This document shows, piece by piece, positions 2,875 to 50,989 of a DNA stretch of 64,000 nt; the stretch's first letter is position 1; every line of letters begins with the position of its first letter. Both the position numbers and the translations under genes were made by a program. The notes beneath the pieces were generated by a model that was not told the DNA's origin, did no database searches, and was given only the letters and a program-made list of their open reading frames with translations. The DNA lies in NCBI RefSeq assembly GCF_048403405.1, contig NZ_CP183129.1. The stretch is one strand, 5' to 3'. The stretch is from Escherichia coli (GTDB lineage: Bacteria > Pseudomonadota > Gammaproteobacteria > Enterobacterales > Enterobacteriaceae).

Positions 2875-2935
2875 TGAAAAGGTGTAACCCGCCATCCATG
2901 GAAAAACCAGGCGCTGGTTATCAGATATTAAAAAG

Positions 2936-3382
2936 TTATTCATTATCGCCCGGGATGTCTTCTTGTCGGGAATTACCCAGAGCAATAAATTCCTCTAACA
3001 GATGGGTTAACTGTTGCATTTTCTCGGCAGTAAACTGAGCTTCAATCTGCCGATAGGCCTCTTCAATCTGTGTCTGAGCGCGGTTATACAGCGCCTGCCC
3101 CTCTTTGGTCAGCGAGATATAGAGCTTCCGCTGATCATTGATCGGCTTTAATCGCAACACTAAACCGTCGCGTTCCATCCGCGTAAGGATCCCGGTCAGG
3201 CTTGGGCGCAAAATGCAGGCGCGATACGCCAGATCGTGAAAATCCATTGATGGGCTTTCCGCCAGAATACGCACGATGCGCCACTGTTGCTCAGTCAAAT
3301 TATGCCGTTTAACGATTGGGCGAAAATAACTCATCGCCGCTTCTCGCGCCTGGAGCAACGCAATGGTTAGAGAGTCGTGCAT
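2936..3382 (-). CDS. hpaR: MarR-family repressor of the homoprotocatechuate (hpa meta-cleavage) operon
   Basis: ORF track gives 175 aa; the internal Met (MHDSLTIALLQ...) gives a 148-aa MarR-type winged-helix protein recognised as HpaR; divergent from hpaG. Confidence 0.85.
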   Translation of the reverse strand: MHDSLTIALLQAREAAMSYFRPIVKRHNLTEQQWRIVRILAESPSMDFHDLAYRACILRPSLTGILTRMERDGLVLRLKPINDQRKLYISLTKEGQALYNRAQTQIEEAYRQIEAQFTAEKMQQLTHLLEEFIALGNSRQEDIPGDNE

Positions 3383-3604
3383 TATCTTTCCCCTGAAAAA
3401 TTCAAAATCATTAATATAGAAACAGTTAATCATCACGTTACCGGGACTGCGCTGCCCCTGCAATTCTTCATTTTATCAAAATTGAGCATGTTTTGTTAAC
3501 TTGCTGATATTTAATATTTTATTATCTTTAAATGTAAATAGTTTGTTAATTAGATCACATTTACATCACTTACTTTTGCCAAACTACGCAATCGGGAATA
3601 AAAG

Positions 3605-3628
3605 TAATCATTAACATATTAATGATTA
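3605..3628. promoter_or_regulatory. Perfect 10-bp inverted repeat, candidate HpaR operator at the hpaG promoter
   Basis: TAATCATTAA-cata-TTAATGATTA, 26-49 bp upstream of the hpaG start; related half-sites AATCATTAAT (3406-3415) and TTAATCATCA (3427-3436) sit next to the hpaR start. Confidence 0.5.
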
Positions 3629-3653
3629 AGATGATCGAATCCGAGGAGTGGTA

Positions 3654-4943
3654 ATGAAAGGCACTATCTTCGCCGTAGCGTTGAACCATCGCAGCCAGCT
3701 TGATGCATGGCAGGAAGCGTTCCAGCAATCCCCCTACAAAACCCCGCCTAAAACTGCGGTCTGGTTTATTAAACCGCGCAATACGGTGATTGGTTGCGGT
3801 GAACCGATTCCCTTTCCACAGGGTGAAAAAGTACTGAGCGGTGCGACTGTTGCGCTGATTGTGGGGAAAACGGCGACGAAAGTACGTGAAGAAGATGCGG
3901 CAGAGTACATCGCCGGATATGCGCTGGCTAACGACGTCAGCCTGCCGGAAGAGAGCTTTTACCGCCCGGCAATCAAAGCAAAATGTCGTGATGGATTCTG
4001 CCCCATTGGCGAAACCGTGGCTCCCAGCAATGTCGATAATCTGACTATCTATACCGAGATCAACGGGCGTCCTGCCGATCATTGGAACACCGCCGATTTA
4101 CAACGTAACGCCGCGCAGTTGCTGAGCGCTCTGAGCGAATTTGCCACGCTGAATCCAGGCGATGCCATTCTGCTCGGCACGCCACAGGCGCGCGTGGAAA
4201 TACAGCCAGGCGATCGCGTGCGTGTTCTCGCAGAAGGTTTCCCGCCACTGGAAAATCCGGTAGTGGACGAACGTGAAGTGACCACGCGCAAGAGCTTCCC
4301 AACGCAGCCACACCCGCACGGCACGCTGTTTGCCCTCGGCCTGAACTACGCCGACCACGCCAGCGAACTGGAATTTAAGCCACCGGAAGAACCGCTGGTG
4401 TTCCTGAAAGCGCCGAATACCCTCACTGGCGATAACCAGACCTCCGTGCGCCCGAACAATATTGAATACATGCACTACGAAGCGGAGCTGGTGGTAGTTA
4501 TTGGCAAGCAGGCGCGTAACGTCAGCGAAGCCGATGCCATGGATTATGTCGCGGGCTACACCGTGTGTAACGACTACGCCATTCGCGACTATCTGGAAAA
4601 CTACTACCGCCCTAACCTGCGGGTAAAAAGCCGCGACGGACTGACGCCGATGCTTTCAACCATCGTGCCGAAAGAGGCGATCCCGGACCCGCATAATCTG
4701 ACCCTTCGCACCTTCGTCAACGGCGAGTTACGCCAGCAAGGCACCACCGCCGATCTGATCTTCAGCGTGCCCTTCCTGATCGCCTACTTAAGCGAATTTA
4801 TGACCCTGAATCCGGGCGACATGATCGCCACCGGCACACCAAAAGGCTTATCTGACGTGGTGCCTGGCGATGAAGTAGTGGTGGAAGTAGAAGGCGTGGG
4901 CCGCCTGGTGAACCGAATTGTGAGTGAGGAAACAGCGAAATGA
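3654..4943 (+). CDS. hpaG: Bifunctional 5-carboxymethyl-2-oxo-hex-3-ene-1,7-dioate decarboxylase / 2-hydroxyhepta-2,4-diene-1,7-dioate isomerase
   Basis: 429 aa from ATG 3654 with GAGGAG RBS at 3644-3649; duplicated FAH-family domain; recognised as HpaG. Confidence 0.9.
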   Translation: MKGTIFAVALNHRSQLDAWQEAFQQSPYKTPPKTAVWFIKPRNTVIGCGEPIPFPQGEKVLSGATVALIVGKTATKVREEDAAEYIAGYALANDVSLPEESFYRPAIKAKCRDGFCPIGETVAPSNVDNLTIYTEINGRPADHWNTADLQRNAAQLLSALSEFATLNPGDAILLGTPQARVEIQPGDRVRVLAEGFPPLENPVVDEREVTTRKSFPTQPHPHGTLFALGLNYADHASELEFKPPEEPLVFLKAPNTLTGDNQTSVRPNNIEYMHYEAELVVVIGKQARNVSEADAMDYVAGYTVCNDYAIRDYLENYYRPNLRVKSRDGLTPMLSTIVPKEAIPDPHNLTLRTFVNGELRQQGTTADLIFSVPFLIAYLSEFMTLNPGDMIATGTPKGLSDVVPGDEVVVEVEGVGRLVNRIVSEETAK

Positions 4944-17856: not shown

Positions 17857-17883
17857 CCCTCATATTCCTCCAGAATATGAGGG
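17857..17883. terminator. Hairpin terminator between convergent yjiA and pac
   Basis: ccctcatattc-ctcca-gaatatgaggg perfect 11-bp stem. Confidence 0.5.
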
Positions 17884-45489: not shown

Positions 45490-45518
45490 AAGCGCAAGGA
45501 ATGTTTACCCTTGCGCTT
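45490..45518. terminator. Hairpin terminator between convergent yjiC and uxuR
   Basis: aagcgcaagg-aatgtttac-ccttgcgctt stem-loop with flanking A/T runs on both sides. Confidence 0.45.
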
Positions 45519-50925: not shown

Positions 50926-50989
50926 AAGAACACCTGAGCCTGCCATTGGCAGGCTCTGACTGATGACAAAGTCTAAAAATGTGCCCGGC

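Follow-up and report, generated by a model that had tools for sequence, protein, structure and literature searches.

The HpaR repressor of Escherichia coli binds the intergenic region between hpaR and hpaGEDFHI and is a repressor of hpaG as well as of hpaR (Galán et al. 2003, as summarized in PMC6888825). According to that summary, the protein occupies two sites, which have been proposed to form a repression loop; one of them lies around position +47 of the hpaR transcript, where HpaR is believed to block elongation (PMC6888825). The operators of E. coli W (Galán, Kolb, Sanz, García & Prieto 2003, Nucleic Acids Res 31:6598) are the nearest counterpart of the locus examined here, which was found in a 64,000-nucleotide stretch of E. 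coli DNA that we call the window. The species, the genes and the two-site layout are the same, nothing substantive differs, and the window simply represents another strain of E. coli.

A similar arrangement has been described in Yersinia pseudotuberculosis, where HpaR produces two DNase I footprints in the hpaG1 promoter with a TTAA-N4-TTAA core, reported as ‘similar to E. coli W’ (PMC7180172). As in E. coli, one site is promoter-proximal, the other lies ~180-190 bp upstream, and both repress the hpa-meta genes; the positions are about -8 and -189 relative to the Yersinia start, such that the promoter-proximal site does not lie over +1 (PMC7180172). Unlike E. coli, Yersinia lacks HpaA and has the genes in one long operon; in addition, its HpaR is an activator of T6SS4, for which it uses an imperfect site richer in GC (PMC7180172). 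The de-repressing ligands are 4-HPA and 3,4-HPA (PMC10364317; PMC2791445). The closest characterised MarR-family relative of HpaR is NadR of Neisseria meningitidis, likewise a 4-HPA-responsive repressor (PMC2791445; PDB 5AIP), whose operators flank promoter elements of the target gene nadA. NadR differs from HpaR in controlling an adhesin rather than a catabolic operon, and its effect is modulated by phase-variable repeat spacing. The orthologue from A. baumannii, which is more distant from the HpaR of the window, has been solved on DNA (PDB 7EL3; Permsirivisarn et al. 2022) as a dimer that makes symmetric winged helix-turn-helix contacts on a pseudo-palindrome.

Genome comparison shows that positions 2900-3700 of the window are 100% identical to many E. 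coli chromosomes, and the annotation of an identical strain gives the gene order tsr, hpaR, hpaG, hpaE, hpaD, hpaF, hpaH, hpaI, hpaX, hpaA, hpaB, hpaC. The hpaR product matches the HpaR equivalog profile TIGR02337 with 201.1 bits against a cut-off of 121.2, and shares the protein accession WP_000543916.1 with E. coli BL21. Its nearest solved structures are NadR 5AIP (E = 5.7e-44) and A. baumannii HpaR 7EL2/7EL3, the latter entry being homologous at E = 1.1e-32. Because hpaR and hpaG are both annotated and both recovered by profile matches, the two repeats under study can be placed within the divergent hpaR-hpaG intergenic region, which spans 271 bp (3383-3653) at 26-34% G+C. The features of this region are collected in Table 1.

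Table 1. Genes and observed, predicted or candidate control elements of the hpaR-hpaG region, in window coordinates.
Feature	Positions	Strand	Sequence or description	Basis or remark
hpaR	2936..3382	-	MarR-family repressor of the homoprotocatechuate (hpa-meta) operon	RefSeq annotation of a 100%-identical strain
hpaR-side operator (proposed)	3406..3428		imperfect palindrome AATCATTAA-TATA-GAAACAGTT, centre 3416.5	in-register repeat, matrix, conservation
Second half-site of the original prediction	3426..3435		TTAATCATCA	unrelated sequence at this position in other genera
Predicted hpaR promoter, Pr	3470..3499	-	-35 TTAACA (3499..3494), 18-bp spacer, extended -10 TGATAAAAT (3478..3470)	consensus scan
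IHF-like motif	3497..3509	-	conserved TATCAGCAAGTTA, IHF-like WATCARNNNNTTR (WATCAR-N4-TTR)	overlaps Pr -35
CRP-like site	3544..3559		TGTTA-ATTAGA-TCACA, centre 3551.5	conserved block in 12-genus alignment
Predicted hpaG promoter, Pg	3576..3604	+	-35 TTGCCA (3576-3581), 17-bp spacer, weak -10 TAAAAG (3599-3604)	conservation
hpaG-side operator (proposed)	3605..3628		perfect palindrome TAATCATTAA-CATA-TTAATGATTA, centre 3616.5	direct reading, repeat search
Shine-Dalgarno of hpaG	3643-3648	+	GAGGAG	sequence
hpaG	3654..4943	+	first gene of hpaGEDFHI	annotation; NF011750 full-length match, 974 bits

The presence of the locus varies within the species: the hpaR-hpaG region occurs in just 2072 (38%) of 5426 complete E. 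coli genomes, and two copies are plasmid-borne. In E. coli BS-04 (NZ_CP172819.1), the match covers no more than the initial 207 bp of the intergenic region, with 88% identity and differences in homopolymers. The hpaG-side operator is absent from this strain, no hpaR or hpaG is annotated at the locus, and the hpa genes are either degraded or deleted, or else poorly assembled.

The original prediction for this region began with a perfect 10-bp inverted repeat, interrupted by four nucleotides, just upstream of hpaG, and direct reading together with repeat and pattern searches recovers it at exactly the same coordinates. The palindrome ends 25 bp before the hpaG ATG, and its core, TTAA-CATA-TTAA at 3611-3622, conforms to the footprinted HpaR motif. 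When up to three mismatches are allowed, the 24-mer pattern matches once in the window and not at all in 100 shuffles, and a symmetric weight matrix built on orthologous hpaG-side sites ranks 3608-3625 first (31.4 bits) among ~64,000 window positions. Perfect 10-bp inverted repeats with spacers of 0-10 appear in 198 of 20,000 dinucleotide-preserving shuffles of the intergenic region (~1%), and one-mismatch copies of a single half-site are not rare (10 matches versus 4.85 expected); taken alone against chance in AT-rich DNA, the perfect palindrome is only suggestive. Both arms are invariant in eight E. coli haplotypes, whereas the spacer varies. The full 10-bp arms belong to E. coli, and because most other genera keep only 7-bp arms (TCATTAA / TTAATGA), the outer three base pairs of each arm (3605-3607 and 3626-3628) are probably dispensable for recognition.

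Galán and colleagues are said to have named the HpaR sites OPR1, for the perfect palindrome at Pg, and OPR2 in 2003. We take 3605-3628 to be OPR1 and 3406-3428 to be OPR2.

Other palindromes and matrix matches occur in the window. Five more perfect 10-11-bp inverted repeats with short spacers were found (1112-1141, 17857-17883, 39260-39287, 45490-45518 and 50936-50956), compared with ~0.4 expected from whole-window shuffles; these are GC-richer and may be terminators or REP-like elements. The second-best matrix match, TTATTAACTTGTTAACTC at 32573-32590 (9.0 bits), lies between a gene for an SdiA-regulated-domain protein and yjiJ, and nothing beyond its matrix score supports this sequence as an HpaR site.

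A weaker copy of the palindrome is situated on the hpaR side of the region. Positions 3406-3429 and 3606-3629 form a direct repeat that is 75% identical and exactly 200 bp apart, and the weight matrix puts 3408-3425 third (8.3 bits) among the same ~64,000 positions. This E. coli site is weak, in that its right arm fits at five of 10 bases and its core, TTAA-TATA-GAAA, keeps the left TTAA but not the right one. Across the eight E. coli haplotypes, 3406-3424 is invariant, position 3425 varies, and the stretch between the two operators is polymorphic.

The identity of the second arm of the hpaR-side site is a point on which our analysis departs from the original prediction, which had joined the half-site AATCATTAAT at 3406-3415 to TTAATCATCA. 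Direct reading confirms the position of the former and finds the latter one base away from where it had been placed (3426-3435, not 3427-3436). Their pairing is improbable, as TTAATCATCA lacks conservation between genera and is substituted in half of the E. coli haplotypes, where two columns are polymorphic (TTAATCGTCA in three of eight and TTAAGCATCA in one of eight). For these reasons the hpaR-side half-site most likely pairs with the degenerate arm GAAACAG (3419-3425), which would preserve the 4-bp spacing of the perfect palindrome, and TTAATCATCA probably lies outside the conserved operator. An operator composed of AATCATTAAT and TTAATCATCA, with centres 21 bp apart and occupied by one distorted dimer or by two dimers, is improbable, but we keep it as a minor rival because TTAATCATCA is the closer to the arm within E. 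coli: it fits the right arm TTAATGATTA at eight of 10 positions versus five of 10 for GAAACAGTTA, and 3425-3439, read as its reverse complement, shares 80% identity with 3601-3615. However, other genera carry unrelated sequence at that position and keep the N4-spaced arm instead (e.g. TGAATGA in Citrobacter, TTAATAA in Klebsiella), the centre of the alternative pair (3420.5) fits the reported +47 worse than 3416.5 does, and the footprinted Yersinia sites have N4 spacing (PMC7180172).

A small feature flanks both proposed operators in E. coli. GATGAT (3630-3635) and ATCATC (3430-3435) are reverse complements at the same offset from the operator centres, +13.5 to +18.5; this pair is E. coli-specific, unconserved in other genera, and may be a coincidence.

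We scanned one genome per species and obtained 80 loci with HpaR orthologues of 64-99% identity, representing Escherichia, Citrobacter, Enterobacter, Klebsiella, Raoultella, Kluyvera, Leclercia, Pluralibacter, Trabulsiella, Serratia, Hafnia, Photorhabdus and Edaphovirga, among others. The two genes are divergent in all 77 other loci that retain both gene starts. The hpaG-side site is nearly invariant in 77 orthologous loci (consensus TCATTAAyATATTAATGA), and a TTAA-N4-TTAA site is found no more than 130 bp from hpaG in 77 of 78 loci. A second, upstream site with the same arm/N4/arm geometry is kept in almost all loci, and reads ATCATTAA-TATA-GAAACAGT in E. coli, ATCATTAA-TAGA-TGAATGAT in Citrobacter, TTATTAA-TAAG-TTAATAA in Klebsiella, ATCATTAA-CAAG-TAAACAAT in Enterobacter and GTTAA-TAAC-TTAATAG in Serratia. 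Ungapped pairwise comparison of 18 genera gives a mean core identity of 0.92 for the hpaG-side site and 0.76 for the hpaR-side site, versus 0.27-0.35 for the flanks (0.33 for those of the hpaR-side site).

The distance between the two sites is conserved as well. With the site in each locus chosen by best matrix score and checked against a 194-207 bp range, the centre-to-centre distance is 196-201 bp in nearly all loci and exactly 200 bp in E. coli. A second TTAA-N4-TTAA adjoins the hpaG-side site in four loci (L006, L021, L029 and L050), and an extra site is present in L034; the distances in L005 and L034 are 198 and 200 bp, respectively. Photorhabdus has overlapping candidate sites that yield either 197 or 205 bp, and only Pluralibacter gergoviae stands clearly apart, at 189 bp, approximately one helical turn shorter. 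By comparison, the gap between the upstream site and the hpaR start codon varies between 23 and 258 bp, and that between the downstream site and the hpaG start codon between 34 and 179 bp. Because the operator spacing is fixed while the start-codon distance is variable, the upstream site is tied to the hpaG-side operator and not to the hpaR coding start.

The distance corresponds to ~19 helical turns throughout Enterobacterales. Most of the DNA between the sites cannot be aligned, and the fact that its length has been kept while its sequence has not supports a geometric constraint. The data do not support strict helical phasing in every genus, since a range of 196-201 or 205 bp spans up to most of one turn. 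Looping need not account for all of the conserved length, part of which could be due to the two promoters that lie between the sites. The conserved spacing and the tie of the upstream site to the hpaG-side operator add modest support to the published cooperative-loop model.

Both promoters are predicted from sequence, and the exact start sites are inferred from their positions. Pr scores 10 of 12 consensus matches plus a TG extension, and its motif cTGnTAnAcT is kept on the minus strand at a constant distance from the hpaR-side operator in Enterobacteriaceae. The hpaR transcript is predicted to start near 3463-3465, which would place the operator centre at ~+47 (46-48 bp), in agreement with the published ‘around +47’. 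The published position and the conserved extended -10 contradict an hpaR-side operator lying over +1 of the hpaR promoter. The expectation that the repressor acts on its own promoter is thus retained in part: autoregulation stands, but the site is inside the hpaR leader, ~47 bp past the predicted start, and not on the promoter. Given this downstream location, autoregulation is thought to operate by a roadblock or a loop and not by promoter occlusion. A different scan promoter on the minus strand (3549..3521) was set aside, as its -10 is unconserved in other genera.

On the hpaG side, the TTGC and ATAAAA of Pg are nearly invariant columns in a 12-genus alignment. Pg was not called by the promoter consensus scan, which missed it because the -10 lacks the final T. 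The proposed hpaG-side operator directly follows this conserved, weak sigma-70 promoter, its first base adjoining the predicted -10, and would span the predicted hpaG +1. With the hpaG start predicted near 3611-3613, the palindrome would cover approximately -7 to +17.

Upstream of Pg, a relaxed CRP pattern, nGT[T/G]n-N6-TCACn, is present in all 78 loci, 64-66 bp upstream of the hpaG-side operator centre. Relative to the start predicted for Pg, the CRP-like site would be centred near -60 to -62, a position that suggests class I CRP activation of an hpaG promoter with a weak -10, and CRP probably assists this promoter. A second CRP site was considered at the weaker copy of repeat D2 (3492-3513) and rejected, because the critical G positions of its TGTGA half-site are unconserved in other genera; the letters that are conserved there fit the Pr -35 and/or the IHF-like core instead. 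Two other features of this stretch were observed. TGTAAAT (3533-3539) is a nearly invariant island in the 12-genus alignment, and ATGTAAAT (3532-3539) forms with ATTTACAT (3559-3566) an 8-bp inverted repeat that brackets the CRP-like site, off its centre.

The IHF-like motif matches strictly at one fixed position in 39 of 77 loci, with near-matches in most of the others. Its distance from the centre of the hpaG-side operator is 111-113 bp, and it is located roughly midway along the 200 bp that separate the two operators. The conservation of WATCAR-N4-TTR could reflect an IHF site, conservation of the promoter that it overlaps, or both.

A palindrome so close to a gene start might also act in RNA, as a hairpin in the hpaG leader that affects mRNA stability or translation. 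If transcribed, 3605-3628 can fold as a 10-bp A-U-rich stem (-6.8 kcal/mol, centroid structure), yet this is no better than shuffled sequences achieve (z = -0.91; 30 of 200 shuffles fold at least equally well), and the palindrome has no Rfam match. Because the predicted hpaG start falls inside the left arm, the hairpin would not be transcribed whole. What is conserved, moreover, is the sequence (the invariant TTAA...TTAA), while pairing is broken asymmetrically in some genera, for example as TCATTAA/TTAATAA in Hafnia, and there is a related site 200 bp away, in DNA that the hpaG transcript does not include. We consider the hairpin reading very unlikely, and the DNA operator reading is the one retained here.

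That the repeats arose by chance, or are generic H-NS, Fis or IHF targets with no specific repressor role, is a reading to which the low G+C content, the ~1% shuffle frequency and the lack of significant enrichment of single half-sites with one mismatch lend some colour, but a chance origin is untenable given the 200-bp in-register repeat and matrix ranks of 1 and 3, the pattern of two conserved islands at fixed spacing excludes it along with the nucleoid-protein version, and HpaR binding is on record in PMC6888825 and PMC7180172, so that we assign it a negligible probability.

The claim that these repeats are operators of a MarR-type repressor, HpaR, which controls the catabolic promoter and hpaR alike, is supported by gene context, strong phylogenetic footprints and published footprinting. 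We hold it to be highly probable that the two sites are the operators of HpaR in the divergent hpaR-hpaGEDFHI control region. The sites, their conservation and fixed spacing, their position relative to the predicted promoters and the identity of HpaR derive from the present analysis, whereas HpaR binding, the +47 position, the loop proposal and the inducers are taken from the literature, and the roles given to CRP and IHF are our own inference. An HpaR dimer would bind the perfect palindrome and cover the start of the weak, CRP-assisted hpaG promoter, such that RNA polymerase is excluded or unable to clear the promoter. A second dimer would occupy the weaker imperfect copy 200 bp upstream, ~47 bp inside the hpaR transcript, and the two bound dimers might then interact and loop out the intervening DNA. 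Such a loop would strengthen hpaG repression and hinder elongation of the hpaR transcript, which would constitute autoregulation. According to the literature, binding of 4-HPA, 3-HPA or 3,4-dihydroxyphenylacetate (homoprotocatechuate) to HpaR would release the repressor.

A more elaborate proposal is that the operator pair is an ancestral, length-constrained looping module assisted by IHF through the motif at 3497-3509. We regard this as doubtful, but if IHF does bend the loop, HpaR repression would operate through an IHF-assisted loop. To our knowledge, such a loop is undescribed for any MarR-family repressor.

The operator pair was already known and was mapped experimentally in 2003, and the present finding is a correct re-discovery. 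The operators, the repressor, its inducers and the loop model were published for E. coli W in that year and the system has been re-examined in Yersinia and Acinetobacter, while the loop model appears to have been tested in E. coli only. The comparative analysis makes modest additions, namely the fixed spacing of the two operators across Enterobacterales, an upstream site whose position is uncoupled from that of the hpaR start codon, and an IHF-like motif that is conserved near the middle of the putative loop. In practical terms, the value of this work lies in an accurate annotation of the control region, both for hydroxyphenylacetate biosensors based on HpaR and Pg and for the reading of natural variation.
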